Positions 3,827 through 46,606 of a stretch of 64,000 bases of DNA are shown piece by piece; position 1 is the first letter of the stretch; each line of letters begins with the position of its first letter. A program made the translations under genes and the position numbers. The notes under the pieces are model-generated. The model saw only the letters and a list, made by a program, of their open reading frames with translations, was not told the DNA's origin and did no database searches. Origin of the DNA: Cloacibacterium sp. (GTDB taxonomy: Bacteria > Bacteroidota > Bacteroidia > Flavobacteriales > Weeksellaceae); NCBI GenBank assembly GCA_046296655.1, contig JBKBLE010000011.1, positions 290 through 64,289 of the forward strand, written 5' to 3'.

Positions 3827-6800
3827 ATGGAAACCCAAAAATATCAACCTAAAAATAAGGTAAGAGTAGTTACAGCAGCCTCACTTTTTGACGGACACGA
3901 CGCTGCCATTAACATTATGCGAAGAGTGATTCAAGGAACAGGATGCGAAGTTATTCACCTTGGTCATGATAAATCCGCAGAAGAAGTAGTAAACTGTGCT
4001 ATTCAAGAAGATGCAAACGCTATTGCACTTACGTCTTATCAAGGCGGTCATAATGAATATTTTAAATACATCTATGATTTACTTCGTGAGAAGAACTCTC
4101 CTCAAATCAAAATTTTTGGTGGAGGTGGTGGAGTAATTCTTCCCGAAGAAATTAAAGATTTAATGGAGTACGGAATCGATAGAATTTATTCTCCAGATGA
4201 TGGTAGAGAAATGGGATTGCAAGGAATGATTGATGATTTGGTTCAAAAATCTGATTTTGCTACAGGCGAAAATATCACCGTTTCTGATATCGAAAATATC
4301 AAATTCGAAGATGCTAAATCTATCGCGCAAGTGATTTCTGCCGTGGAAAACTTCTCAGATGAGAAACCAGAATTGGTGGAAGCATTAAAAGAAAAAGCAA
4401 AAGATTTCAATATTCCCATCATCGGGATTACAGGAACTGGAGGTGCAGGTAAATCTTCGTTAACAGATGAATTGGTGCGTAGATTTTTAAGAGCAAATCC
4501 TGATAAAAAAATTGCGATTATTTCTGTAGATCCTTCTAAAAAGAAAACTGGAGGTGCGCTTCTCGGCGATAGAATCAGAATGAATTCCATCAATGATTCT
4601 AGAGTTTACATGCGTTCTATGGCTACTCGAGAGAATAATGTTTCGGTTTCGCCTTACATTCATTCTGCATTAGATGTTCTCAAAATTTCTAGTCCAGATA
4701 TTATTATTTTAGAAACTTCGGGAATTGGTCAATCTGGTTCTGAAATTACTGAAATTGCAGATATTTCTATGTATGTAATGACGCCAGAATATGGTGCTTC
4801 TACACAATTAGAAAAAATTGATATGCTAGATTATGCAGATTTAATCGCATTAAATAAATCTGACAAAAGAGGAGCTTTAGATGCCGTTCAAGCGGTGAGA
4901 AAACAGTTTCAGCGTAACCACCAATTGTGGGAAAAACCATTAGAAGAAATGCCAGTTTTTTCTACGAAGGCAAGTCAGTTTAACGATTGGGGAACTACCG
5001 TTTTGTATAATGCATTAATTGAAAAAGTAAATGCTAAATTCACTTCATTAGATCTAAAATCATACGAAGAACAAAACGTTTCGGAAGAATCTACCATTAT
5101 TCCACCGAAAAGAGTTCGTTATCTTTCTGAAATCGTAGATAATAATAAAAATTACGACAAGCAAGTTGAGGAACAAGCACTAATCGCTAAAAAAATGTAT
5201 CTCATCGATGGTGCTAAAGCACTGATTACAGATGATGAACATACTACTGATAAACTTGAAAAAGTTTTCCTAAAAATCAAAAAAGAACTTTCGGAAGAAA
5301 ACCGATTGTTTTTGCAAGGTTGGCATCATTTTAAAGAAGAAATGCAGCAAGATACCTTCTCTTACTTGGTTCGTGGCAAAGAAATAAAAGTAGAAACCAA
5401 ATACGAATCACTTTCTCATCTTAAAATTCCAAAAATTGCCTTACCGAAATACCACGATTGGGGCGATTTAATCCGTTGGAAAGGCCAGGAAAATGTTCCC
5501 GGAGCATTTCCATTCACCGCGGGAATTTATCCTTTCAAAAGAACCGGTGAAGATCCTACCAGAATGTTTGCAGGAGAAGGCGGGCCAGAACGTACCAACA
5601 GAAGATTCCACTTTGTTTCCGCAGAAATGCCTGCGAAAAGACTTTCTACAGCGTTTGATTCTGTGACTTTATATGGTCAAGATCCTGCTTTTCCACCAGA
5701 TATTTACGGAAAAATCGGGAACGCGGGAGTTTCCATTGCAACTTTGGACGATGCCAAAAAACTCTATTCCGGTTTTGATCTGATTAATGCTTTGACATCT
5801 GTTTCAATGACGATTAACGGTCCTGCTCCGATGCTATTGGCATTTTTTATGAACGCTGCGATTGATCAAAATTGTGAAAAATATATTGAAGAAAATAATC
5901 TTTGGGATAAAGTAGAACAAAAACTTAAAGAAAAATTTGACGATAAAGGTTTAAAAAGACCTTCCTACAACGGAGAATTGCCACCTTCCAACAATGGTTT
6001 AGGTTTAAAATTATTGGGAATTACCGGTGATGAAATTTTAGATGCTGAAACATACCAAAAGATAAAAGCAGAAACCATCGCAACTGTTCGTGGAACGGTT
6101 CAAGCAGATATTTTGAAGGAAGATCAAGCACAAAATACTTGTATTTTCTCTACGGAATTTGCTTTGAGATTAATGGGAGATGTTCAGGAATATTTCATTC
6201 AAAATAAAGTGAGAAATTTCTATTCGGTTTCTATTTCCGGGTATCACATTGCTGAAGCTGGCGCGAACCCAATTTCTCAGTTGGCATTTACTTTGGCAAA
6301 TGGTTTCACTTATGTAGAATATTATTTGAGCCGAGGAATGAATATTAATGATTTTGCTCCGAATCTTTCCTTCTTTTTCTCCAACGGTGTCGATCCCGAA
6401 TATGCCGTGATTGGACGCGTTGCCAGAAGAATCTGGGCGAAGGCTATGAAATACAAATATGGTGCTGATGAGCGTTCGCAAATGCTGAAATACCATATCC
6501 AAACGTCAGGACGTTCGCTTCACGCACAAGAAATCGATTTTAACGATATTAGAACTACGCTTCAAGCGTTGTATGCGATTTATGACAACTGTAATTCACT
6601 TCACACCAATGCTTACGACGAGGCAATTACCACACCAACCGAAGAATCGGTGCGTAGAGCAATGGCAATTCAGTTGATTATCAACAAAGAATTAGGTTTA
6701 GCGAAAAACGAAAATCCGCTGCAGGGTTCATTTATTATTGAAGAATTGACGGATTTGGTAGAAGAAGCGGTTTATGCAGAATTTGACAGAATTACAGAAC

Positions 6801-7426: not shown

Positions 7427-8482
7427 ATGAATAACGAAAACGAGATTGTAGAAGACCTTAAAAACTGGAAGGAAATCATCAAACCTTATGCTACACCAGA
7501 AATAAAATTAGCAAGAAAAGAAGTCTGGAAAACGGTTTTACCTTTCGGTTTGCTTTTTATAGCGGCAGCCATAGTTTATGAATTTCAATTTTGGGGCGCT
7601 TTAGGAATTTGCTTTTTGGCAGGATTATTTTTAACCAGAATTTTTATTATTCAGCATGATTGCGGGCATCAATCTTTTTTCCCGGACAGAACTAAAAATG
7701 ATAGAACAGGATTTCTAATGAGTTTGATGACGTGTATTCCATACAAATATTGGGCGCGTTCTCATAATCATCATCACGCACACCAAGGTCAATTAGATAC
7801 CAGAACCATCGGAGATGTTACTTTGTTGACGGTGAGAGAATACAATGAACTTTCTAATTGGGGAAAGATAAAATACAGAATTTATCGTTCGGTTCCTGTA
7901 ATGTTTGTTTTGGGGCCTATTTACTACATTTTTATTCACAACAGAATTCCTTTTATCAAATTTAAAGGTTGGGAAAAAGAGCGTTTAACGCTGTTGAGAA
8001 CCAATTTATACTTATTAGGATTTTTTGCCATTTTAGGAGTGATTTTAAGCTTGCCGACTTTTGACCTTATCGAAGGATTCAAAAAATTAGCACTTTTATA
8101 CATTCCTATTCTTATCACGTTTGCGTTTACAGCGATTTGGTTTTTTTACATGCAACATCAGCACGATCCAAATTACAAAGCATGGAAAGAAGATTGGCAA
8201 TATCTTTTAGCAGCAATTAAAGGAAGTTCTTATTATAAATTGCCAAAAATTTTCAACTTTTTTACAGGAAATATTGGGTATCATCACATTCATCATTTGG
8301 CTCCGAAAGTTCCTTTCTATAAATTAGAAAAATGCAGCAAAGAGAATCCTATTTTCCAAAAATATGTAACGACTATTACCTTATTAAGCAGTGTTAAATA
8401 TGCATTTTATACACTCTGGGACGAAGAAAATTACAGAATGATTACCTTCAGACAACTGAAAACCATCCCTGTAAAAGCATAA
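7427..8482 (+). CDS. Membrane fatty acid desaturase (Bacillus Des-like)
   Basis: Three His boxes: QHDCGH, HNHHHAH and HHIHH. TATCTTTG promoter box at 7397-7404. Confidence 0.9.
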   Translation: MNNENEIVEDLKNWKEIIKPYATPEIKLARKEVWKTVLPFGLLFIAAAIVYEFQFWGALGICFLAGLFLTRIFIIQHDCGHQSFFPDRTKNDRTGFLMSLMTCIPYKYWARSHNHHHAHQGQLDTRTIGDVTLLTVREYNELSNWGKIKYRIYRSVPVMFVLGPIYYIFIHNRIPFIKFKGWEKERLTLLRTNLYLLGFFAILGVILSLPTFDLIEGFKKLALLYIPILITFAFTAIWFFYMQHQHDPNYKAWKEDWQYLLAAIKGSSYYKLPKIFNFFTGNIGYHHIHHLAPKVPFYKLEKCSKENPIFQKYVTTITLLSSVKYAFYTLWDEENYRMITFRQLKTIPVKA

Positions 8483-8503
8483 ATTTATTTCACATGATAT
8501 TTC

Positions 8504-8533
8504 AAACCTTCAAGATTTTCTTGGAGGTTTTTT
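8504..8533 (+). terminator. Intrinsic terminator after the desaturase
   Basis: AAACCTTCAAGA-TTT-TCTTGGAGGTTT followed by a T-run. Confidence 0.75.
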
Positions 8534-8595
8534 GTTGAGGTTAAAGAAAAGCCCTACAAAAGATTTTGTATCTTTGAAAAGACAAATTCAGGAGG

Positions 8596-9645
8596 ATGAA
8601 AGACGTAAAAATAGAATTCAGAAAACCAATGTATCCTGTAAATTCAGAATTGATGGATTATTTGGAAAAAAACAATCGTCTCACCAATATTCGGTTTTAT
8701 TATGATGATTTATTGCGCTTTTCAGATTATATGCCCGTTCATGATAAAGATGGCAATGATACGCTTTGGCTCAATGTGTATTACCCTGAATTTGAACAAG
8801 CCGAAATCGAAGCCAATCTCAACAAAATTTACACGCTTTTACATTCTGATGGAGATGTAGATGTATTGCCTTTTCTTACGGTAGATTCTATTCACTTTTG
8901 TACGTTTGGGAATTCTAAACCGTTCAGAATAAGAGTAAGAAACATTCTGAATGATAATTATACCAATTTTTACATCAAAAAAGCAGATGCTTCTAGGATT
9001 TATGGTTTGGAACTAGAAGAAATTCTTTCGCCAAATCGTATTAATTTCCTTTTGTACAAAGACACTTTAATTGAGGAACATATTTTAGGAATTCCTGGAG
9101 ATGTCTTTATAGAAAAGCATTTAGACCAATGTTCACCTCAAGAAAAAGCTCAAATTGCCAAAGAATTTGTAAAATTTAATGAACGCTGTTTAATTGGTTT
9201 ATTAGGAGATATGCGTTCGTACAATTACGTGGTGATTCCTACGCATGATTTTGACCAAGTAGTGTATAGAATTCGTCCGATTGATTTTGACCAACAATGC
9301 TACGAAGGAAATCTCAAAATTTATCTGCCTCAATATTTCAAAGAAAATAAAAAAATGGTAGATATGGTTTATGATAAGCTAAAACCCAATTCCATCGAAC
9401 AATACCGAAAAGAAGTTCGTTCTGCCATTGCTAAACGCGCCAGTACAGACGGAAGGTTGCCTCATTTGTTAGAAATTATGAAAAGAGATGAGATTTCTAA
9501 ACCAGAACATGTAGAAGAATTGAAAAAAGGATTGCTGAAACTCACGTATAATTCTCAGTTCAAAAAGTGTGAAACAATGGGCGAAATTCTAGAAACAGGA
9601 CTTAATTTTGTGATTAGAAATTACAGAAGTTCTAATGTGAGGTAG
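8596..9645 (+). CDS. Conserved hypothetical protein, probable atypical (PI3K/HipA-like) kinase fold
   Basis: 349-aa ORF with its own TATCTTTG box (8569-8576). Ordered motifs: FGNSKP, YIKKAD, GDMRSYNYVV, IDFD. Confidence 0.6.
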   Translation: MKDVKIEFRKPMYPVNSELMDYLEKNNRLTNIRFYYDDLLRFSDYMPVHDKDGNDTLWLNVYYPEFEQAEIEANLNKIYTLLHSDGDVDVLPFLTVDSIHFCTFGNSKPFRIRVRNILNDNYTNFYIKKADASRIYGLELEEILSPNRINFLLYKDTLIEEHILGIPGDVFIEKHLDQCSPQEKAQIAKEFVKFNERCLIGLLGDMRSYNYVVIPTHDFDQVVYRIRPIDFDQQCYEGNLKIYLPQYFKENKKMVDMVYDKLKPNSIEQYRKEVRSAIAKRASTDGRLPHLLEIMKRDEISKPEHVEELKKGLLKLTYNSQFKKCETMGEILETGLNFVIRNYRSSNVR

Positions 9646-13577: not shown

Positions 13578-15038
13578 TTATAGTGAATAATTCGGAGCTT
13601 CTTGCGTGATAATTACATCGTGAGGATGAGATTCCTTCAATCCAGAACCTGTAATCATTACCATTTTTCCTTCTTTTTGTAAAGTTTCGATGTCTTTAGT
13701 TCCGCAATAACCCATTCCAGCTCTGATTCCACCAGTCAATTGGAAGATAACGTCTTCTAATTTTCCTTTGTATGGAACTCGTCCTTCAATTCCTTCTGGA
13801 ACAAATTTTTTAGCTTCACTTTGGAAATATCTTTCTTTTCCACCACGTTTCATAGCAGAAAGACTTCCCATTCCTTGATAAGATTTGAATTTTCTACCTT
13901 GGAAAATAATTTCTTCACCTGGCGCTTCTTCCGTTCCTGCTAAAAGTGAACCGAGCATTACTGCGCCAGCTCCAGAAGCGATAGCTTTTACAATATCACC
14001 AGAAAGTTTAATTCCACCATCTGCAATTACGGCTACATTATATTCTTTAGCTTTTTCGTAAACGTTATAAATTGCCGAAAGTTGAGGAACGCCAACTCCA
14101 GCTACAACTCTGGTAGTACAGATAGAACCAGGACCTACTCCTACTTTTAGAACATTTGCGCCAGCTTTAATTAAAGCTTCGGCAGCATCTGCTGTTACGA
14201 TGTTTCCGCCTACAATATCTAAATCTGGGAAAGCATTTCTAATTTCTGTAATTTTATCAAGAACACCTTTAGAATGACCATGCGCAGAATCTACTGCTAT
14301 AATATCTACACCAGCTTCTACTAATGCTGCAACTCTAGTCATCGTATCATCTCCTACACCAACTCCAGCTCCTACGATTAATCTTCCGTTTTGGTCTTTA
14401 TTGGCTTGAGGATATTCTAACTGATTGTCTATATCTTTTATGGTAATTAATCCTACTAAATGATTTTCTGAATCTACAATCGGAAGTTTTTCTATTCTGT
14501 TTTTAAGCAAAATCTCTTTGGCTTGCTCTAAGTTGGTAGATTTATCAGAAGTGATAAGATTTTCTTTGGTCATCAATTCTTCTACTTTTGCAGAAAGATT
14601 TTCTTGATATTTTACATCACGATTGGTGATGATTCCAATTAATTTATTGTCTGTATCTACTACTGGAAGTCCAGAGATTTTATATTTCGCCATAAGTTCC
14701 TTAGCTTCAGCTAAAGTATGATCTTTAGAAAGCGTAATAGGATCAGCGATCATTCCGTTTTCTGAACGTTTTACACGGTTTACTTGTGCTGCTTGTTCTG
14801 GAATAGGCATATTTTTATGAATAAAACCTAAACCTCCAACTCTGGCAATAGCAATCGCCAAATCTGCTTCTGTAACGGTGTCCATCGCTGCGGAAACGAT
14901 AGGAACATTAAGCGTGATTTTGTCTGAAATTCTAGATTTAAGAGAAACTTGATTGGGTAAAACTTCTGAGTAAGAAGGGATAAGAAGCACATCATCGAAA
15001 GTGATGGCGGTTTCTACGATTTTGTTGTGAATAGACAT
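13578..15038 (-). CDS. guaB: IMP dehydrogenase
   Basis: [13 protein letters not shown] pair, catalytic loop GPGSICTTR and YQGMGS. Confidence 0.99.
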
Positions 15039-35829: not shown

Positions 35830-35943
35830 TTCAACCTTTACCTTTGCCTTTACCTTTACAATTACCTTTGTCTTTACCTTTGTCTTTACCTTTGCCTTTA
35901 CCTTTGTCTTTACCTTTGTCTTTACCTTTACCTTTACCTCAAC
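35830..35943. repeat. Hexamer tandem array, 19 units (CTTTAC/CTTTGT/CTTTGC) capped by TTCAAC and CTCAAC
   Basis: Counted unit by unit: 114 bp. Confidence 0.95.
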
Positions 35944-38022: not shown

Positions 38023-40071
38023 CTATTTCTGTTTTTTATAAAACTCGATTCCACATTCTAAGAATTTTTTGAAATCTTCTTTCGGCATATAACCAGAAAC
38101 AGGAGTGTTAATCACTTTTCCTTCTGGAGTTACCAAAACGTAATGCGGTTGAGAATTATTATTAAAATTCACTTGTTGGAACATACTCCATTTATCACCA
38201 ATGGTTTTAATGCGTTTCATTTGTCCGTTTCCTAAATCTACTTTGGTTTGTTCTGCTTCTGGCAATTCTTCTTTGTCGTCTACATAAAGAGAAGCAAGAA
38301 TGACTTCGTTTTGTAAAGTTGGGAGAATATCAGGTTCACTCCACACAAATTCTTCCATCTTTCTACAGTTTTCGCAACCATAACCTGTGAAATCTATTAA
38401 AACGGGCTTGTTTTCTTTCTTTGCCAATGCTATCGCTTTGAAATAATCATGTTCTGGATGCATTCCTAGAATTCCGTCTTTTTCATCATGAAGATAACTC
38501 ACATTAATTGGAGGCAAAATCCCTGAAAGCATTTGTAATTTCGGTCTTTCTGCAGGAAATAAACCTTGAACTAAATAAATCACAAAACCAATTCCTAAAA
38601 CGCCAAAGATTTTTCGGGTAACAGAAATTTTTTGGTTTTTATCATCATGTGGAAATCTGATTTTTCCAAATAAATAAAGCACTAAACCGATGGTGATGAT
38701 TATCCAAATCGCGATAAAAAGTTCACGTTTTAGTAAGAATGTTTTAGAAACTAAATCTGCTTTTGACAAGAATTTCAGTGCTAAAGCCAATTCTACGAAA
38801 CCTAGAACTACTTTTACGGTATTCATCCAACCGCCAGATTTTGGCAAACTCTGTAACGCTTGCGGAAATAATGCCAATAATCCGAAAACAATTGCCCAAC
38901 TTAAACCAAATCCTGCTAAAGCGAAGGTTAATAACATCGGAACATTTGCAGAACCCGTAACAGCGCTTCCTAATAAACTTCCTAAAATTGGTCCAGTACA
39001 AGAGAATGAAACAATTACTAAGGTTAAAGCCATAAAGAAAATTCCGATGATTCCTCCTGCTTCTTCTGCTTTTGAAGATTTATTGGCGATAGAACTTGGC
39101 AATGTAATATCATAATATCCAAAGAAACTTCCTGCGAAGAATAAGAAGATTAAGAAAAATGCAATATTTAAGCTAACTGATGTAGAAATTTGATTAAAAA
39201 TATTTCCCGCAATTCCATCAATAATGTGAAACGGAACGCTCAATAAAACGAAGATTAAAAGAATGAAAAATCCGTAAATGAATGCGTCTCTTTTTCCTTT
39301 TGCTTTGTCTTTTTGCCCTTTGGTAAAGAACGAAACCGTTAATGGAATCATTGGGAAAACGCAAGGCGTTAACAAAGCGATTAATCCGCCCAAAAACCCT
39401 AAAAATAAATAAGTGAGGTAGTTTTCAGAATTTTTTTCTTTTGCTACGCCACAGTCTGTTAAAGGATTTTCGAAATCCAATGAAGAAACCTTTAATCCTT
39501 CTTGTTGAGGAGCAATTTCTGTGTTTTCAGTTGTTATAGGAATAGTAGCCGCTACAGATTTTGTAGAGTCTAAATTCTGTACATCTTCTTTATTTTCCTC
39601 AGTTTTTACAACTGCTGAACCAGCTATTGTTTTTTCAAATTCTAAAGATTCAGGAGCCAGACAAACTCTGTCATCACAAGTTTGATAGGTAAACTCTGCA
39701 ATTACATTGGCTGGTTTTTCAGGATTTTTGAGTTTGAATTTTTGCTTAATCGTCACATTTCCAGACAAGAAAATCAAATCTGTACCGAAAGCTTCAGAAA
39801 ATTCAGTTTTTCTACTGCCTGTTTCTACAGGTTTTCCAATGAGTTGAATGTCTTTAGAATTCAGCTTCAGTTCTGTGGGAATAGCTCCAGATTCTGGGTC
39901 GATGTCTTTAGAATAAATATGCCATCCTTTGTCAATGTTAGCCGTAATTACTGCTTCGTATTCGTTATTTGGGAGTGATTTTACATCGTATTTTATCGTG
40001 ACGTGTTTCTGAATTTGCGCAGAGAACAATGAGGTAACAGCGATAAAAAGTAAAAGCAAAAACTTCTTCAT
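38023..40071 (-). CDS. dsbD: Protein-disulfide reductase DsbD (N-terminal, TM and thioredoxin domains)
   Basis: YQTCDDRVC, LTPCVFP, SFSCTGP and C-terminal GCENC. Confidence 0.93.
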   Translation of the reverse strand: MKKFLLLLFIAVTSLFSAQIQKHVTIKYDVKSLPNNEYEAVITANIDKGWHIYSKDIDPESGAIPTELKLNSKDIQLIGKPVETGSRKTEFSEAFGTDLIFLSGNVTIKQKFKLKNPEKPANVIAEFTYQTCDDRVCLAPESLEFEKTIAGSAVVKTEENKEDVQNLDSTKSVAATIPITTENTEIAPQQEGLKVSSLDFENPLTDCGVAKEKNSENYLTYLFLGFLGGLIALLTPCVFPMIPLTVSFFTKGQKDKAKGKRDAFIYGFFILLIFVLLSVPFHIIDGIAGNIFNQISTSVSLNIAFFLIFLFFAGSFFGYYDITLPSSIANKSSKAEEAGGIIGIFFMALTLVIVSFSCTGPILGSLLGSAVTGSANVPMLLTFALAGFGLSWAIVFGLLALFPQALQSLPKSGGWMNTVKVVLGFVELALALKFLSKADLVSKTFLLKRELFIAIWIIITIGLVLYLFGKIRFPHDDKNQKISVTRKIFGVLGIGFVIYLVQGLFPAERPKLQMLSGILPPINVSYLHDEKDGILGMHPEHDYFKAIALAKKENKPVLIDFTGYGCENCRKMEEFVWSEPDILPTLQNEVILASLYVDDKEELPEAEQTKVDLGNGQMKRIKTIGDKWSMFQQVNFNNNSQPHYVLVTPEGKVINTPVSGYMPKEDFKKFLECGIEFYKKQK

Positions 40072-40100
40072 TTTTAATTTTTTAGGTTTACAAAAATATG

Positions 40101-40135
40101 AAAAAGGACTGGATTAATGAGTTAAAACAGTCCTT
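40101..40135 (-). terminator. Intrinsic terminator after the His/Cys peptide gene
   Basis: AAGGACTG...CAGTCCTT stem followed by a T-run on the minus strand. Confidence 0.6.
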
Positions 40136-40155
40136 AAATTACAGTAATAAAATGC

Positions 40156-40389
40156 TTACATTTTACAAGAAGCATCACAGACGTGTCTTTTCTCACCATG
40201 TTTGTAAACGTGTTTTCCTGATGTGTGACACGCTTCTGTACAAACATGTTTTTTTAGTTTATGAGCTTTTTTACAAGATTTTCTGCATTCTTTGGTGCAA
40301 ACATGTTTCTGTGGAGTTTCTTGTGCGTTCATAGTGAATGCAAATCCCGAGATTAGAAGCATTAAGCTTAATTTTTTTAGTGTTTTCAT
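40156..40389 (-). CDS. Small secreted His/Cys-rich repeat peptide
   Basis: Sec signal (…FTMNA|Q). The mature ~55 aa has 7 Cys, 7 His and three (K/R)HVCxxxC repeats. Confidence 0.8.
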   Translation of the reverse strand: MKTLKKLSLMLLISGFAFTMNAQETPQKHVCTKECRKSCKKAHKLKKHVCTEACHTSGKHVYKHGEKRHVCDASCKM

Positions 40390-40410
40390 AAATTATATAT
40401 TTTTAAGTTC

Positions 40411-40447
40411 TATTAATAAGTTCCTGTATTGAAAAAAAATCACCCAA
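40411..40447 (-). promoter_or_regulatory. Candidate alternative-sigma promoter, copy B
   Basis: Minus strand TTGGGTGA-TTTTTTTT-CAATACA-GGAACTTATTAATA, 21 nt upstream of the peptide ATG. Same spacing as copy A. Confidence 0.6.
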
Positions 40448-41492
40448 CTAAACTTAATTTTCTTAATTTTTTTTCAATTTTTAGATTTTCGGTCAAGATT
40501 TTTATTCCGTCTTTTAGAGTGAGATTCTCAGTGCCAGATTTTTTATTTATTGCTGCAATTTTGCTCATAATTTTCCAGTGTTTATAGATTTCTTTCCAGG
40601 CGAAAAAAAGAGAATGTTTAGGATCATACATATGTGTAGGTTCGCTTTTGCTACCGTTAAGTTCTATAATTTTAAAATTTTGCCCTTGTTTTAGCAGCGC
40701 CAGATTATCATACATAATATCTAATCTGCCATAGTAAAAACCATCTATTTCTTTACAAATTTCATCTATTTTTGCTTCTAGATTTTCATCTATTTCATGA
40801 GAAATATCTATAAATTCAGCTCCACGAGTGTGGCTTCCGAAAGGCATTAAATCTATTTTTTTATTTTCGGGAATAATAATATTCCATTCTTTAGAAAATC
40901 TTTTCTGCAAGGTTTTAAAATGAATTTCGCTTCTGGGATTTTGTTTTATGAGTTCTGCTAAAGTGTTTTGTCCGTTTCCTGTTACGTTTAAAAAATTTTT
41001 CTTTACCACGCCGGTAATTTTTCCCTTTTTATGATGAGGAAAACGATGATAAAAAACACCAATTTCATTTGTGAATTCAATTTTTTCCTGAATAATAAAA
41101 TCATAATCGCAGGTCAATAAATATTGCTGCAGATCATTTTTGTTGTCTAAAATTTCTACACCTAAACCTTTTAAACCAATATCTGGTTTTATAATGAGAG
41201 GAAATGTGATTTCTTTTTTCTGAATTTGATTGATGACAGTTTCCGGCGCTGATTTTTTTCTGAAAAATAAAGTTTTCGGAATGTGTTTTTCTGGGATGAT
41301 GTTGTAAATAAGTGCTTTAGAATCCATTGCCATTCCACCGAAAGGTAATGCAGGATTTGCTTGGTGAAAGAAAAATAAAGATTTTGCTCTGCAAGAAAGA
41401 TAAAGCCAAAAAGGAAGCATAGGAATATAGATTGCTGGTGTACTCCAATATTCCCAATTTTTTAGTTGATGTATTTTTAGTTTAAAACTCAT
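40440..41492 (-). CDS. ATP-grasp protein (Ddl-like fold, function unknown)
   Basis: FPLIIKPDIGLKGLGV, FIIQEKI, YYGRLDI and IIELNG. Confidence 0.8.
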   Translation of the reverse strand: MSFKLKIHQLKNWEYWSTPAIYIPMLPFWLYLSCRAKSLFFFHQANPALPFGGMAMDSKALIYNIIPEKHIPKTLFFRKKSAPETVINQIQKKEITFPLIIKPDIGLKGLGVEILDNKNDLQQYLLTCDYDFIIQEKIEFTNEIGVFYHRFPHHKKGKITGVVKKNFLNVTGNGQNTLAELIKQNPRSEIHFKTLQKRFSKEWNIIIPENKKIDLMPFGSHTRGAEFIDISHEIDENLEAKIDEICKEIDGFYYGRLDIMYDNLALLKQGQNFKIIELNGSKSEPTHMYDPKHSLFFAWKEIYKHWKIMSKIAAINKKSGTENLTLKDGIKILTENLKIEKKLRKLSLVG

Positions 41493-42189
41493 GTTGCAAT
41501 TTTGTGTTTTTTTCTAGCGTAACTTGGTTTTCATATTCCCAATGTTTAATGTAAATTTCTTCTGAAATAATAATTTGAGTGGTACTAATGGTTTTTACCA
41601 GATTGTTTCGGTTCATCATAATTCCGTTTTCGGTATCATTGGTTTTGTTTTGATGAAATGCCAAAATATTTTCAGCGTTTGTTTCTTTGTCTAAGAAAAA
41701 ATCAGTGAACCAAGTCTCTCGTTTTTCTTTTGCTGCAGTATTATACAAAGTAGAAGAAGACCAAATGTGTTTTTCTGAAAAATCTAGCTCTCTGAAAAAT
41801 TTTTCTTCGCCATTCCAGCGAAATTCTACTAAATTTTTGTTGAAGAAAATAATTAATGTGAATGGTTCTATCAAATAAAGGTCTAGTTCTTCTATTGCAG
41901 AAATGATATTGTTTTTTTCTAAAATTTCAAGTACAATTAAACCTCTGCTTTTTCTGTAGTTTTTATTTTTTTCATGTTTTGTAAAAGCACCGTTCAGTAA
42001 AATAACAGCGTTTCCTTTTTCTGAAACTGCACACCAAGTTCCGCCTGCTTTTTCGTCTTTAGGAAAGAAAAACTTCTGTTGGTTTATATTTTTTTCTTCT
42101 AAGATAATTGCAGAGCGTTTTGGTTGTTCGTCTCGGTTAGAAGTAAGAATAAAACCTTCTTTGGTGTTAAAAAAAGTTACGGTGCACAT
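41482..42189 (-). CDS. NRDE/TANGO2 family protein (Ntn-hydrolase-like)
   Basis: N-terminal MCTV, SNRDE, KAGGTW and SRG motifs. Confidence 0.92.
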   Translation of the reverse strand: MCTVTFFNTKEGFILTSNRDEQPKRSAIILEEKNINQQKFFFPKDEKAGGTWCAVSEKGNAVILLNGAFTKHEKNKNYRKSRGLIVLEILEKNNIISAIEELDLYLIEPFTLIIFFNKNLVEFRWNGEEKFFRELDFSEKHIWSSSTLYNTAAKEKRETWFTDFFLDKETNAENILAFHQNKTNDTENGIMMNRNNLVKTISTTQIIISEEIYIKHWEYENQVTLEKNTKLQHEF

Positions 42190-42689
42190 TATGAAATATT
42201 TTGTTTTCTGTATAAAACGGTAGAAGCAGCTACACCAAAATCATCTGTTACCAAATGTTCTATGTTTAATTCTTTTACTGCTACTTTTACCAGAGCTTGA
42301 TGATGTATGCAGTGTTCTATATTATAAAGCAATTCTCGGTCAAAATTGGTAATAATATCCACAGAATTATGTGTAAGAGTCATTTCTTTATTGGGCAAAT
42401 CAATTTTAGAAAGTATTTCTTTGATTTTTGTAACAGCAAATTCTGTATTGTTTTCTAAGGTTTTATTTCTCTCTCTAGCATCATATTCTACAATGCCAGA
42501 ATTATATGAGCTTAAGAGTAAATCTAGAAATTCTATCATGTGTCTTGTATGTCCGCCAATTGTAGAAGAGTTAAGTGTGAAAATAGGTTTAGTATATTCT
42601 AAATCAGAAATTTTTTCTAAAAGAAAAATGTGTTCAGACAGAACATTTATCAAAGCATTAAAAAGTGTATTATTCTGAGATTTTTGCAT
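42189..42689 (-). CDS. DinB family protein
   Basis: IGGHTRH and RELLYNIEHCIHH metal-ligand histidines, four-helix pattern. Confidence 0.85.
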   Translation of the reverse strand: MQKSQNNTLFNALINVLSEHIFLLEKISDLEYTKPIFTLNSSTIGGHTRHMIEFLDLLLSSYNSGIVEYDARERNKTLENNTEFAVTKIKEILSKIDLPNKEMTLTHNSVDIITNFDRELLYNIEHCIHHQALVKVAVKELNIEHLVTDDFGVAASTVLYRKQNIS

Positions 42690-43047
42690 GTTTTAAATTT
42701 TTATAAACCAATATTAAACAAAATATGGCGGTTGTTATAGCCAGATAAAATAATTTTCCGTTGTCATTATTTGTTTCAATTCCCAAAATAAAAATGTGTG
42801 AAACAATAGCACCTATCATTGTGAAAAAGCCTAATAATGCTCCCCAGAAAGTAGTTTTCGGGTTTAGGATTAATATAGCAGTAATTAGCTCCAAAACTCC
42901 AGAAAAAACCCTCCCGAAAGGTTCTGCGTGAAGCTTAGAAAAAATGGCAACAGAGTCTGGATGTGCTGTAAATTTAAAAAATAAAGTCTGTAGTAAAATA
43001 ATGGCAGGAACTAATCGCAATGCCCAATTAATAAAATTTTTCATCAT
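42670..43047 (-). CDS. DoxX family membrane protein
   Basis: ILLQTLFFKFT...GVLELITAILIL...GAIVSH. Start at ATG 43047/43044 rather than the track's 43173, which overlaps the DM13 gene. Confidence 0.85.
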   Translation of the reverse strand: MMKNFINWALRLVPAIILLQTLFFKFTAHPDSVAIFSKLHAEPFGRVFSGVLELITAILILNPKTTFWGALLGFFTMIGAIVSHIFILGIETNNDNGKLFYLAITTAIFCLILVYKNLKHAKISE

Positions 43048-43054
43048 TTGTGTA

Positions 43055-43483
43055 TTATAATTTTTGAAGTAATGCGTAAGAAAATAAATGATTGTATTGT
43101 TGGCAATGAACAACGGCGTATTTGTAATCGTCGAAATTGATTGCACTTGTGAACGTGTATGTTTGTCCACCATTCACAGATTTTAGTCTTCCAAGTGAAA
43201 CAAATTGAGTTGGTTGCTGTTCTTTGCTTACATAAACATACAAATCCGGACCGTTATTGATGGTAAAACTATCATTGAAAACTAATGTGAAAATGCCATT
43301 TTTTTCGTAAATCTCGGCTTTTCCGTTCACGTTATTTCCGTAAGGTCCTTGCGTAAAGTTTCCCGAATATTTCAAAATAGCATTTTCGGGAGCCATTTCC
43401 ATCAGATCTTCTGTAGAGGTGTTTTCTCTGATGCAAGAAACTAAAAGAAATGATGTTATCAGTAAAGTAAGAAATGCTTTCAT
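43055..43483 (-). CDS. DM13 domain lipoprotein
   Basis: Lipobox LLVS|C, GPDLYVYVS, LGRLK and VVHCQQYNHLFSYA. Confidence 0.85.
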   Translation of the reverse strand: MKAFLTLLITSFLLVSCIRENTSTEDLMEMAPENAILKYSGNFTQGPYGNNVNGKAEIYEKNGIFTLVFNDSFTINNGPDLYVYVSKEQQPTQFVSLGRLKSVNGGQTYTFTSAINFDDYKYAVVHCQQYNHLFSYALLQKL

Positions 43484-43487
43484 AATT

Positions 43488-43940
43488 CTACTTTGTAGTT
43501 ATCTTTTTCCAATTTTGATCGGCTTGTTTTTTTAGTGTTTCTTCATTTTTGTTCCAAGAATTGAGCGTGTTGGTGAACAATTTATTGTAGAAAAGATAAG
43601 TTTTGCCATTAATTATTTTAAAAGTAGTTGGGTTAATTTCTACTTTCTCACCATTATCTCCCATTGCAAAAGCACACCAACCTCCATAAACAGGCTCATA
43701 TTTTGAGGGATTTTTTGTAAGAAGTTCTTTGTTTTTGGCAGAAGAAGTGTAGTAAATAGCTCCATTTACATTTACTGCAAAATCTTTTTTCCCTTTTACC
43801 GCTTTTTTTTGCTCAATATATGCAACAGGATCATAACCCTGAATTGCTAATTTGTTTTCTAAATTTCTATGCTCTGTTTTTTGAGAAAAAGCAAAAAAAT
43901 GAACTAAGAAAACGAGAATAATTGCGATGTGTTTTTTCAT
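43488..43940 (-). CDS. Exported YHS-domain protein
   Basis: AIQGYDPVAY, PSKYEPVYGGWCAFAM and GKTYLFYN. Sec signal. Confidence 0.88.
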   Translation of the reverse strand: MKKHIAIILVFLVHFFAFSQKTEHRNLENKLAIQGYDPVAYIEQKKAVKGKKDFAVNVNGAIYYTSSAKNKELLTKNPSKYEPVYGGWCAFAMGDNGEKVEINPTTFKIINGKTYLFYNKLFTNTLNSWNKNEETLKKQADQNWKKITTK

Positions 43941-43949
43941 AAATTTTAA

Positions 43950-44912
43950 TTAAAGTTGTTTTAAAATATCTTCTAATGAAGCTCTCACTTTATAATCGGG
44001 GTTGAAGTGTCGCCAAATAATTTTTTGATTTTCATCTAATATATAAGTAGCAGAAACAGGGAGTCTTCCAGTTTCGTCTGAACGGCTTTTTTTGAAATCG
44101 TCTCCTAAATGTTTTTCGTATAAGTCTAAAGTTTTTCTTTCAGGAATGTAGAGTACATCAAAAAGTTCTGCGATTTTATAATTTTCATCATACAAAACAG
44201 AATATGAAGTTTTGGTTTTATCGATGGTTTTTGCAATGAACTCGGGCTTTTCGGGTGAAATAATTACCAGTTGTGTATTTTTAGATTCTAATTCAGGAGC
44301 AATATTTTGAAGACTTTCTACATACTTATTGCAGTAAGGACACCATTGTCCACGAATGAAAACCAAAACTGTTTTCTTTTTTTCCTGAGACAGAGAAAAT
44401 GTATTGCCAAACTGATCTTGTGCAGTAAAATCTGGGATAGTTTCGCCTACCAATTTACCTTTTACCTCAGCTAAAGTTGGCGTTTTGTTACCTAAATTTC
44501 TTTTTTCTAAAACCGAATATCCAACAGTAAGAAACTGTTTTGCGTTGTAATATCCATAATCGTACTGTACCAGTTCACCATTTTTATCTAAGAAAAGAAA
44601 AGAGGGATAATTTACAATTTTGAATTTTTTGGCAAGATCTACACCTTCTTTTTCGGCATCAATGTAAAGGCTGATAAAATTTTTGTTGAAAAATGCTCCC
44701 AATTCTGCATCAGGAAATGTATTCTTTTTCATTAGCTTGCAAGGTCCGCACCATGTAGTGTACAAGTCAATGAAAATGAGTTTGTTTTCTTGCTGAGCCA
44801 GTTTCTTGGCTTCTTCTAAATTTTTAGTCTGAAAATTGATTCCGTCTTTGCTTTGTGCATTAAATGAAATACCAACTAAAAATAAAACGGTATAAATGAT
44901 TTTTGTAAACAT
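43950..44912 (-). CDS. Exported fusion: thioredoxin (WCGPC) + AhpC/TSA peroxiredoxin-like domain (WCPYC)
   Basis: IDLYTTWCGPCK and FIRGQWCPYC. C-terminal LPVSATYILD...DYKVRAS. Confidence 0.85.
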   Translation of the reverse strand: MFTKIIYTVLFLVGISFNAQSKDGINFQTKNLEEAKKLAQQENKLIFIDLYTTWCGPCKLMKKNTFPDAELGAFFNKNFISLYIDAEKEGVDLAKKFKIVNYPSFLFLDKNGELVQYDYGYYNAKQFLTVGYSVLEKRNLGNKTPTLAEVKGKLVGETIPDFTAQDQFGNTFSLSQEKKKTVLVFIRGQWCPYCNKYVESLQNIAPELESKNTQLVIISPEKPEFIAKTIDKTKTSYSVLYDENYKIAELFDVLYIPERKTLDLYEKHLGDDFKKSRSDETGRLPVSATYILDENQKIIWRHFNPDYKVRASLEDILKQL

Positions 44913-44925
44913 AAAATAAATGATT

Positions 44926-44962
44926 TATTATTAAGTTCCAAAAAGCAAAAAAAATCACCCAA
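44926..44962 (-). promoter_or_regulatory. Candidate alternative-sigma promoter, copy A
   Basis: Minus strand TTGGGTGA-TTTTTTTT-GCTTTTT-GGAACTTAATAATA, 13 nt upstream of the ATG at 44912. The upstream half overlaps a terminator-like hairpin behind the sigma gene. Confidence 0.6.
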
Positions 44963-45011
44963 TGAAAAGGTGATTTTTTAAAATATATATGTAAATTATT
45001 GATAATCAGGA

Positions 45012-45575
45012 TTAAAAATTATCTTCTTTTTTTATTTTCCGAATCTGCTCTACGCATTTATGTTTTTGATTTTGAGCATTATGTTTGCTAGAATACTTAT
45101 ATTTTTCCTGAATTTCATCAATATTTTTGTTCTTCATAAAAATATCGTGAATGAGATTTTGGCAATGTGCAGAAATTTCATTGATGTAATCATTCAGTTT
45201 GTCCCAATAATTCCTTTCGTTTTCTATTGCCAGATTTATTTCTTCTTTATTTTCAAAGTAATAACTTTCATAGACTTCTACAGAAAAATTTCTATTTCGC
45301 AGTTTTTTTAACCAAAGGTTTTTAGAAATTCCGGTTACATAATTTGCGAGGCAAGTGTAGGCTTTGAAATGATCATCGTATAGTTTTTCATACAAAATAA
45401 TCAACGCATCCTGAAAAACATCTTCTGCATCTTCCAGGTTTCCTTTGTTTTCGAGAACAAATTTCCGAGTGTAGCCAAAATATTTTTTATAAAGAATTCC
45501 AAAAGCAATATTATTATCTTTCTGGAAATCTTCTATTGCCAAAGAATTCGTAGTTCTTTTATTCATCTTTTTCAT
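45012..45575 (-). CDS. ECF-type RNA polymerase sigma-70 factor
   Basis: Region 2 (DAEDVFQDALIILYEK...KNLWLKKLR) and region 4 (HCQNLI...IDEIQEK...AQNQKHKC). 187 aa. Confidence 0.88.
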   Translation of the reverse strand: MKKMNKRTTNSLAIEDFQKDNNIAFGILYKKYFGYTRKFVLENKGNLEDAEDVFQDALIILYEKLYDDHFKAYTCLANYVTGISKNLWLKKLRNRNFSVEVYESYYFENKEEINLAIENERNYWDKLNDYINEISAHCQNLIHDIFMKNKNIDEIQEKYKYSSKHNAQNQKHKCVEQIRKIKKEDNF

Positions 45576-46518
45576 GCTTTTTTTTACAATAGATTTCTTT
45601 TCTCTTAATGCTGATTTCGTGGGAGTTGCTTCTAAAGAATTTCCCGTTTTCAGAAAAGATTACTTTTTCTATTTCAATGCCCGTGAAGCCAAGTTTTCTA
45701 ATAATTTCTACAATTATTGTTTTGTGTTTTTTTAGTAATTTTTCTTTGTCTAAAACAAATTCTTTTTCGTCTCCACTTATTAAGATTTCTTCAAATGTTT
45801 TTTGAATTTCTTCTTGAAAAAACTGGTTTGCACTATTAAGATATGAAAGACTTTCTTGAAATTGATTCAAAAAATTAGGAAAAATTTCTAATAATTTGGG
45901 CGTTAGATGATGTCTGATTTTATTTCTCAGATAATCATCTTTTTGGTTGCTTTTATCTTCTCTAAAATCGATGTTGTTTTCTTCTGCAAAAGCATAAATT
46001 TCGGATTTTGAGAAGGTCAAAAACGGGCGCAAAATTCGGTTTTCATTTTTAGGAATTCCGCTCAATCCTTTAATTCCCGAACCTCTGGAAAGATTGATGA
46101 TAAAGGTTTCTAATTCATCATTGAGATGGTGTGCCGTAACAATATAGTCCAAGTTTTCTTCTTCTAAAATTTTAAAAAAGAAATCATACCTCAATTCTCT
46201 CGCCCAATTTTGAAGCGATTTCATTTGAGCTTTTTCTTCTTCTGAAACATCTTTTAGATGAAATTTGATGTCATTTTTTTTGCAAAAATCTTCTACCAAT
46301 TTTTGGTCAAGATTAGAATCTTCTCCTCGGAAATGATAGTTTACATGAGCTACTTGGAACTCTAGACCTTTGTCATTTTGAGCGGAGTCGAAAAATCTAA
46401 ACAAGTGCGAAAGCACCATAGAATCTGCACCACCCGAAACAGCCAAAAGAAATTTTTTAGAAAAAATGTCTTCTCCTAAAACTTCTAAATTTTCCTTAAA
46501 ATTGTTAAAATCTAACAA
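45559..46518 (-). CDS. tilS: tRNA(Ile)-lysidine synthetase
   Basis: AVSGGADSMVL PP-loop, TAHHLNDELET and RNKIRH. TTG start; overlaps the sigma start by 17 bp. Confidence 0.95.
   Translation of the reverse strand: MLDFNNFKENLEVLGEDIFSKKFLLAVSGGADSMVLSHLFRFFDSAQNDKGLEFQVAHVNYHFRGEDSNLDQKLVEDFCKKNDIKFHLKDVSEEEKAQMKSLQNWARELRYDFFFKILEEENLDYIVTAHHLNDELETFIINLSRGSGIKGLSGIPKNENRILRPFLTFSKSEIYAFAEENNIDFREDKSNQKDDYLRNKIRHHLTPKLLEIFPNFLNQFQESLSYLNSANQFFQEEIQKTFEEILISGDEKEFVLDKEKLLKKHKTIIVEIIRKLGFTGIEIEKVIFSENGKFFRSNSHEISIKRKEIYCKKKHEKDE
46371..46398. repeat. GTCAT-headed REP-like remnant inside tilS
   Basis: TGTCATTTTGAGCGGAGTCGAAAAATCT, translated on the minus strand as RFFDSAQND in a loop after the PP-loop helix. 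Confidence 0.6.
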
Positions 46519-46606
46519 AACTGCCTATTTTTAGGCAAATATAATTCTTCTTGTGGAATGAATTTTGTAATTTTGGTAACAATAATTTTAAAAAGATAAA
46601 AGCTTT

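Follow-up and report, generated by a model that had tools for sequence, protein, structure and literature searches.

We evaluated a two-box DNA motif that occurs twice on the minus strand of a 64,000-nt stretch of a Cloacibacterium sp. contig (JBKBLE010000011.1; hereafter the window), and conclude that both copies are very probably promoters read by RNA polymerase carrying a divergent sigma factor of the extracytoplasmic function (ECF) type, which is encoded at 45012-45575 of the window. Copy A (44926-44962) reads TTGGGTGATTTTTTTTGCTTTTTGGAACTTAATAATA and copy B (40411-40447) reads TTGGGTGATTTTTTTTCAATACAGGAACTTATTAATA; each is 37 nt long, and they end 13 and 21 nt, respectively, before an ATG. 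An initial annotation, made from the letters of the window, had proposed that the two halves are the -35 and -10 elements recognised by the adjacent ECF sigma factor. Its coordinates, strand, spacing, and distances to the ATG were all reproduced when the sequence was read again, as was its observation that the TGA within copy B doubles as the stop codon of an ATP-grasp open reading frame (ORF; 40440-41492), and the comparative evidence described below argues for its proposal.

When up to three mismatches were allowed, copies A and B were the sole matches to the full two-box pattern in the 64 kb (0.01 expected by chance), and none of 100 shuffled versions of the window held two such matches. 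Each half-motif searched singly was no more frequent than chance, so the signal lies in the combination of the halves. A relaxed scan (up to two mismatches) added seven places, compared with a mean of 6.4 hits in shuffled sequence, which is the chance level. The motif does not behave like a dispersed repeat or mobile element (repetitive extragenic palindrome, miniature inverted-repeat transposable element): there are two copies per 64 kb, and the copies in other genomes sit at orthologous places beside the sigma gene. Identity between copies A and B is 30/37; of the seven mismatches, six are confined to the 7-nt middle of the spacer (1/7 identical there vs 29/30 elsewhere). This concentration of differences is the pattern expected of two constrained boxes, not of one recent duplication.

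For comparison with relatives, family loci were gathered around the sigma gene (536 kb; L001-L009 by protein look-ups and L010-L063 from a scan of species-representative genomes), with 398 kb around unrelated ECF sigma genes as controls. Conservation of the motif in relatives was a point on which the initial annotation had staked its reading beforehand, and GGGTGA(TT)-N15/16-GG(A/T)A(C/T) was found on the strand of the sigma gene in 30 or more loci with a sigma orthologue (40-92% identity), from Epilithonimonas/Chryseobacterium, Flavobacterium, Formosa, Pseudozobellia, Saprospiraceae, Chitinophagales, Aquirufa, and one Sphingobacteriales genome. In the family loci, GGGTGA-Nx-GGWAY occurred 28 times at x=15 and 11 times at x=16 (39 sites), with zero or one occurrence at other spacings; it had no occurrence at x=15 or 16 in the 398 kb of control loci. 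With GGGTGATT as the sole anchor, GGWAY followed at 15 or 16 nt in 35 of 44 cases in the family loci and in none of nine in the controls. Every listed site outside the window lay on the plus strand of its sigma-oriented locus (the cluster in the window is on the minus strand), and most family sites came directly after the sigma gene. At the sites with 15-nt spacing, for which the distance was measured, the second box preceded the next ATG by 21-78 nt, mostly 21-57 nt.

Within the Epilithonimonas/Chryseobacterium clade, the elements kept at the place of copy A are a hairpin, GGGTGA, a T-run, and a GGAAC some 20 nt ahead of the ATG, while the other intergenic bases drift, and distant members (sigma 40-56% identical) carry GGGTGATTTTTT-N9-GGTAT(T/A)AA at the equivalent place. 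A metagenome scan with GGGTGATTTTTTN{9,10}GGAACTT returned 75 loci, of which about 33 are sigma-adjacent orthologues of copy A.

GGGTGATT was invariant in 37 unique sites, and bases beyond the search pattern were conserved as well, namely a T before GGGTGA, TT(T/A)4 after it, and T or G before the GG of the second box. The second box is GGTAT or GGTAC in most family members and GGAACTT in the window; in the 37 unique sites the boxes (GGGTGA at -35, GGWAY at -10) depart from the canonical ECF consensus. These relatives confirm the two core boxes of the initial annotation but refine them to GGGTGA(TT) and GG(A/T)A(C/T). Of its 14-nt downstream half, GGAAC(T) and the final TA are conserved in relatives, but the remaining positions are not. 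Counted from the first G of the second box, T stands at +12 in 27 and A at +13 in 32 of the 37 unique sites. Bacterial start sites favor a pyrimidine at -1 and a purine at +1 (PMC7776599); the T-A step fits this rule and falls on the last two bases of the 14-mer, so starts are predicted at 44926 and 40411. This corrects the initial placement of the start a few nucleotides after GGAACT. Putative promoter A, an exact match whose orthologous position is conserved in L001-L017 and about 33 metagenome contigs together with T12 and A13, has its -35 box GGGTGA at 44955-44960 (TT before it, T8 at 44947-44954 after it) and its -10 box GGAAC at 44935-44939, and the predicted A at 44926 would give a 14-nt leader to the ATG at 44912. 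For putative promoter B the corresponding positions are 40440-40445 (GGGTGA) and 40420-40424 (GGAAC), with the predicted start A at 40411 and a 22-nt leader.

Neither copy coincides with a recognizable housekeeping promoter. Bacteroidota sigmaA promoters carry TTTG at -33 and TAnnTTTG at -7 (PMC9723704). The initial annotation had seen no TAnnTTTG in the two spacers, and this absence extends to the whole minus strand from 40098 to 46536, while the flanking tilS and dsbD genes each have such a box (TATATTTG at 46536-46543 before tilS; TATTTTTG at 40091-40098 before dsbD, with the counterpart TACTTTTG in L067 and L001). Both motif-preceded units thus lie without a housekeeping promoter signal. 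An E. coli-type promoter scan of the window is uninformative in Bacteroidota.

The sigma protein is a two-domain protein of 184-198 aa across the family (184-187 aa in the window) in which regions 1.1 and 3 are absent. The window protein is 92% identical to that of Epilithonimonas hispanica and 91% identical to that of Chryseobacterium aquaticum. Pfam Sigma70_r2 was found in 15 of 15 family members (2.5e-9 for the best; 6e-4, below the gathering score, for the window protein), a Pfam region-4 match was found in none of the 15, and a search of the Protein Data Bank (PDB) with the family profile returned ECF sigma factors only. The AlphaFold model (predicted local distance difference test, pLDDT, 87.6) has an ECF fold, with two helical bundles joined by a linker. 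Its top Foldseek matches were SigL, sigmaE, SigW, BldN, and AlgU, and full-length ECF sigma factors were matched at a probability of about 1.0. The C-terminal domain of the model superimposes on sigma4 of SigL (3hug) at 1.1-1.4 A over 58 residues and also matched sigma4 of SigD (3vfz). Judged by this model, the sigma4 domain is present by fold and not by sequence profile. The predicted recognition helix (Y-S/T-x-K-H-N-A-Q-N-Q-K-H/Y-K-C) is essentially invariant in the family, as is GGGTGA among the sites. The main text of an ECF re-classification (PMC7826278) mentions no group matching this sigma factor.

ECF sigma factors commonly, but not universally, have a co-transcribed anti-sigma factor. 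No anti-sigma gene adjoins the sigma gene, whose neighbors are tilS upstream and a gene for a thioredoxin (Trx)/AhpC fusion downstream. In the family alignment, the C-terminal half holds invariant His-Cys pairs (H137-C138, H165, K173-C174), and these residues might sense redox state or metals directly. In several distant members (L008:8556-8771, L020, L024, L028), a gene for a 71-aa GDCCVxC protein (NF041374, 106 bits) directly follows the sigma gene and precedes the motif; the clade of the window lacks this gene. The GDCCVxC protein could be a partner or sensor of the sigma factor.

RNA evidence came from assembled contigs, with four informative runs, all from one study of a relative close to L010, that we guessed to be RNA. 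In L010 the predicted start is at 8642 and the ATG at 8656. Each of the four runs gave one contig of depth 20-44 starting at L010:8657-8682, 15-40 nt past the predicted start; upstream, over sigma and tilS, there were only fragments of depth 2.4-4.5, and 8460-8656 was uncovered. Depth steps up 8-10 fold, relative to the sigma gene, just after the motif. Two of the four runs gave a contig of 5.53 kb that covers the operon from the start of Trx and stops at 14148, within the 3' end of the ATP-grasp gene; dsbD was hardly covered. A fifth run with the same organism label had flat, DNA-like depth. The coverage in this relative fits a separate transcription unit that extends from the motif to the end of the operon.

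Taken together with the gene order, these results suggest the following mechanism. The sigma4 half, through its invariant helix, would bind the -35 box (T)GGGTGA(TT), and the sigma2 half would open the DNA at the -10 box (T/G)GG(A/T)A(C/T), 15-16 nt downstream (as a hexamer, TATTAA or AACTTA at 17-18 nt). Transcription would begin about 13 nt after the first G of the -10 box, at the two positions predicted above. Promoter A would drive a seven-gene exported-redox operon, from Trx/AhpC to ATP-grasp, whereas the unit under promoter B would be monocistronic and encode a secreted Cys/His-rich peptide. Expression of the sigma gene would come from the housekeeping tilS promoter, and a hairpin that shares its 3' arm with the -35 box of promoter A would terminate the tilS-sigma transcript, so that the operon would depend on the sigma factor and not on read-through.

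Several observations weigh against this assignment. The boxes are unlike those usually read by ECF sigma factors (AAC at -35, CGT at -10), and the variation of the -10 box (GGAAC vs GGTAT) does not track sigma2 residues cleanly; L025, for example, pairs a GGTAT-type sigma factor with a GGAAC box. The sigma gene served as the anchor for gathering the family loci, so a different, linked regulator could co-occur with the motif. Outside the sigma-adjacent loci, the metagenome hits were chance-like matches in G+C-rich coding sequence, and that scan found no regulon member away from a sigma locus. The 5' boundary of the operon derives from contigs, not reads, of presumed-RNA runs. Lastly, metatranscriptome contigs from wastewater that belong to the species of the window (Logan) show no transcript ends and run through the sigma-Trx intergenic region, which reflects either read-through or DNA carry-over.

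Proximity in the genome is the sole basis for associating the motif with the sigma factor, and the motif might instead be the operator of another regulator that is merely linked to the sigma gene, be it a factor encoded elsewhere or the Cys-rich GDCCVxC protein, whose gene separates sigma and motif in distant members. We consider this improbable. The boxes are neither palindromic nor direct repeats; their orientation to the downstream gene is fixed, their spacing is held at 15-16 nt, and the T-A step lies at a promoter-like distance. Furthermore, no sigmaA -7 box is present to be regulated, and the clade of the window has the motif with no GDCCVxC gene.

The contigs that cross the intergenic region, together with a hairpin that could act as an attenuator, would also be compatible with a conserved RNA leader or attenuator working in a tilS-sigma-operon read-through transcript in place of a promoter. 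The chance of this appears slim: no Rfam family overlaps the element, known RNA families are excluded, no structure is conserved outside one sub-clade, and the RNA-like coverage in the relative of L010 is absent over the motif and 8-10 fold higher just after it.

The hairpin itself was correctly noted in the initial annotation, which had placed the upstream half of copy A in a terminator-like structure. It occupies 44949-44979 on the minus strand (12 pairs, a 7-nt loop, and T8; -12.6 kcal/mol, z = -3.9), lies 33 nt past the sigma stop codon, and has the form of an intrinsic terminator that would end transcription of tilS and sigma; the -35 box and T-tract of putative promoter A supply its 3' arm and T-run. 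One could accordingly read GGGTGATTTTTTTT as a mere 3' half of a terminator, well formed and conserved in the sub-clade, with GGAACTT unrelated and copy B as duplicated DNA, because the window has copy B and its small gene as an insertion that L067 and L001 lack. We give hardly any credence to this. The hairpin is kept in the Epilithonimonas/Chryseobacterium sub-clade only (L001-L013; G-U-compatible changes, z from -2.8 to -5.4) and is absent from the C. viscerum group and all distant members (L014, L017, L008-L033; z about 0), where GGGTGATT is nevertheless invariant; GGGTGA is thus not conserved for a role as a terminator arm. GGGTGATT also stands upstream of sigma paralogues, the second box keeps its distance across the phylum, and the differences between copies A and B cluster in the spacer as described above. 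Copy B folds into a stem of A-U pairs only (z = -1.95). Given this distribution, the copy A hairpin is a clade-specific, secondary add-on: a complement arose upstream, and the -35 box and T-tract thereby came to double as the tilS-sigma terminator.

The last alternative, that GGAACTT, which is the same as the textbook sigmaE -35 heptamer, is the -35 of a classical sigmaE-type promoter (GGAACTT-N16-TCTGA) with its -10 further downstream, has next to no chance of being correct, as copy A GGAACTT lies 20 nt from a conserved ATG and a -10 another 16-17 nt on would put the start inside the gene, nothing is conserved 16-17 nt downstream of GGAACTT, and most of the family has GGTAT or GGTAC there while GGGTGA is invariant. 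Despite its resemblance to a classical ECF -35, GGAACTT would act here as the downstream (-10) box.

On the minus strand of the window, tilS (45559-46518) is followed by the sigma gene (45012-45575), whose probable start, ATG 45566, overlaps the tilS stop codon in ATGAATAA; because of this overlap the sigma factor is probably made constitutively along with tilS. The tilS-sigma linkage is kept in L001-L017 and L139. The operon assigned to promoter A (40440-44912, minus strand; Pfam and NCBIfam annotations) comprises the Trx/AhpC fusion with a signal peptide (43950-44912), YHS (43488-43940), DM13 (43055-43483), DoxX (42670-43047), DinB-like (42189-42689), TANGO2/NRDE (41482-42189), and ATP-grasp (40440-41492) genes, and the same gene set trails the sigma gene in relatives. 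Next comes the target of putative promoter B (40156-40389), which encodes a small secreted peptide of 77 aa with a signal peptide and three HVCxxxC motifs; a terminator-like hairpin with a U-run (40104-40135; -11.9 kcal/mol, z = -3.6) closes this unit. The dsbD gene (38023-40071) is the next, independent transcription unit.

The window tilS has 319 aa, as opposed to 432-455 aa in the Chryseobacterium orthologues that adjoin the same sigma gene, and is either a short form or has lost its C-terminal domain. Compared over 40095-43483, the relative L067 (95.8% nucleotide identity) has no DM13 gene and no small peptide, and its DinB/TANGO2/ATP-grasp segment is divergent from that of the window. The window ATP-grasp is 55-56% identical to the versions in L001 and L010-L012, though the sigma factors of L010-L012 are about 91-92% identical. 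This mid-operon region is probably a strain-variable cassette that has been exchanged. The trio of DinB-like, TANGO2/NRDE, and ATP-grasp genes (40440-42689) recurs in the distant regulons of L007, L032, L139, and L141; the window ATP-grasp weakly resembles GshAB, and a low-molecular-weight thiol might be the product or the substrate of the trio. Elsewhere in the window, a short tandem repeat with a 12-nt period (TACCTTTG per unit; six copies in a pattern search) occupies 35839-35918 on the plus strand.

The small peptide is rare, with five clusters among 5.8 billion database proteins, and its gene is always flanked by those for ATP-grasp and DsbD. The peptide could plausibly bind metals or have a redox role. 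Its homologues in L139-L142 have GGGTGA-N16-aGAAC upstream with TA at +12/13, and the stop codon of ATP-grasp lies within GGGTGA, as in the window; in L139 and L141 analogous hairpins of different sequence close the unit. L067, whose sigma factor is 100% identical to that of the window, and L001 lack both the small gene and copy B; there, the ATP-grasp genes end in ...GTTGATTAA, directly followed by the dsbD promoter. The recurrence of the promoter B layout in L139-L142 argues that this internal promoter is conserved and did not arise from an isolated duplication. Aquirufa (L032) likewise has a second motif site after the ATP-grasp gene, ahead of an OsmC gene.

Across the family, the genes downstream of the motif encode small thioredoxins, YceI, DUF302, DUF6789, DUF6799, OsmC, tRNA_anti-like, DinB-like, TANGO2, ATP-grasp, and DM13 proteins. 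In the Sphingobacteriales locus (L025:5185-7662), the genes after GGGTGA-N15-GGAAC are merTP and merA, which score above their curated cut-offs (282 and 495 bits, respectively), and the sigma gene lies downstream of them. This looks like a mer operon under the control of the sigma factor and not of MerR. At two motif sites (L031:8741 and L033:810) the gene directly downstream is a sigma paralogue, a classical layout that suggests autoregulation. The Flavobacteriaceae locus L031 (4076-11731) holds two sigma paralogues and four motif sites with 16-nt spacing, at 4710, 6343, 8741, and 11200, which precede an M23 peptidase gene, a methyltransferase-like gene, the second sigma gene, and a small thioredoxin-like gene, respectively. 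The YceI-type targets (L018, L019, L021, L026, L029, L032) share a hairpin in the 5' untranslated region, about 10-45 nt after the -10 box; it begins at about the predicted start site, shows compensatory base changes between genera, and has no Rfam match.

Because the regulon is made up of redox and metal genes, the inducing signal is probably thiol-reactive or metal stress. A broader and quite speculative extension, which we put forward with little confidence, is that the sigma family acts as a phylum-wide, anti-sigma-independent sensor of thiol-reactive stress (Hg(II), Cu, oxidants) in which the His-Cys pairs switch binding to GGGTGA, that it replaces MerR in some Bacteroidota mer operons, and that in the clade of the window the combined -35 box and terminator arm both insulates and activates the operon.

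To our knowledge, very few Bacteroidota ECF sigma factors have an experimentally established promoter. Our full-text literature searches found no description of a GGGTGA ECF motif, a role for GDCCVxC, or a sigma-driven Bacteroidetes mer operon. Among the entries listed in the start-site tables for Flavobacterium psychrophilum there is no promoter with GGGTGATT at -35, and none of the six motifs of that study (SM1-6) resembles the GGGTGA/GGWAY motif. Bacteroidota have about 22 ECF sigma factors per genome (PMC7826278). The present analysis offers GGGTGATT-N13/14-GGWAY, followed by a start after about 13 nt, as a consensus that can be tested for a sigma family that ranges from Chryseobacterium to Saprospiraceae and Chitinophagales. 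It also links poorly understood exported redox proteins (Trx/AhpC, YHS, DM13, DoxX, DinB-like, TANGO2, ATP-grasp, YceI, DUF302, OsmC) in one regulon that, in one lineage, takes in MerTP-MerA, which opens a direct way to study what these genes do and how the sigma factor senses its signal. An orthogonal promoter/sigma pair would be on offer for Bacteroidota genetics as well.

In architecture this is an ECF sigma/promoter pair, a kind already known, with a consensus that lacks the AAC and CGT hallmarks. Among known examples, E. coli sigmaE reads GGAACTT-N16-TCTGA and B. subtilis sigmaW reads TGAAAC-N16-CGTA. Like ECF (group IV) promoters, whose general properties are covered in PMC7776599 and PMC7826278, the motif has two short boxes, a spacer that is rigid to within 1 nt, and a pyrimidine/purine step at the predicted start. 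As in other ECF systems, the regulon is small and lies beside the gene for a sigma2-sigma4 two-domain protein. Unlike the promoters of sigmaE and sigmaW, GGGTGA here contains no AAC and GGWAY no CGT, with GGAACTT in the -10 position; the sigma4 half escapes Pfam, and the promoter follows the sigma gene in most members, with no adjacent anti-sigma gene found.

Compared with Bacteroidota sigmaA promoters, the motif shares the organism group and short AT-rich leaders, but both copies are without the TAnnTTTG that the flanking tilS and dsbD units have. The dCas12f-sigmaE system of Bacteroidota performs RNA-guided transcription with no need of a promoter motif (PMC13472631), and likewise involves an ECF-type sigma factor that has no classical anti-sigma partner. 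The hallmarks of that system are a guide RNA and a dcas12f gene, and it was rejected as an explanation for our locus, which keeps a fixed two-box motif and has tilS and redox genes beside the sigma gene.

In terms of physiology, parallels exist with SigR-RsrA and the mer operons. The SigR-RsrA system of Streptomyces governs a thiol-oxidative stress regulon and includes a ZAS anti-sigma factor. Like SigR, the ECF sigma factor described here appears to control thioredoxin-family and thiol-homeostasis genes, but its locus has no ZAS anti-sigma gene, its promoter consensus is different, and its targets are mostly exported or membrane proteins (Trx/AhpC with a signal peptide, YHS, DM13, DoxX, YceI). 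In mer operons, the MerR operator lies between the -35 and -10 boxes. The L025 motif likewise precedes merTP-merA, but control would be exerted by a dedicated sigma factor.

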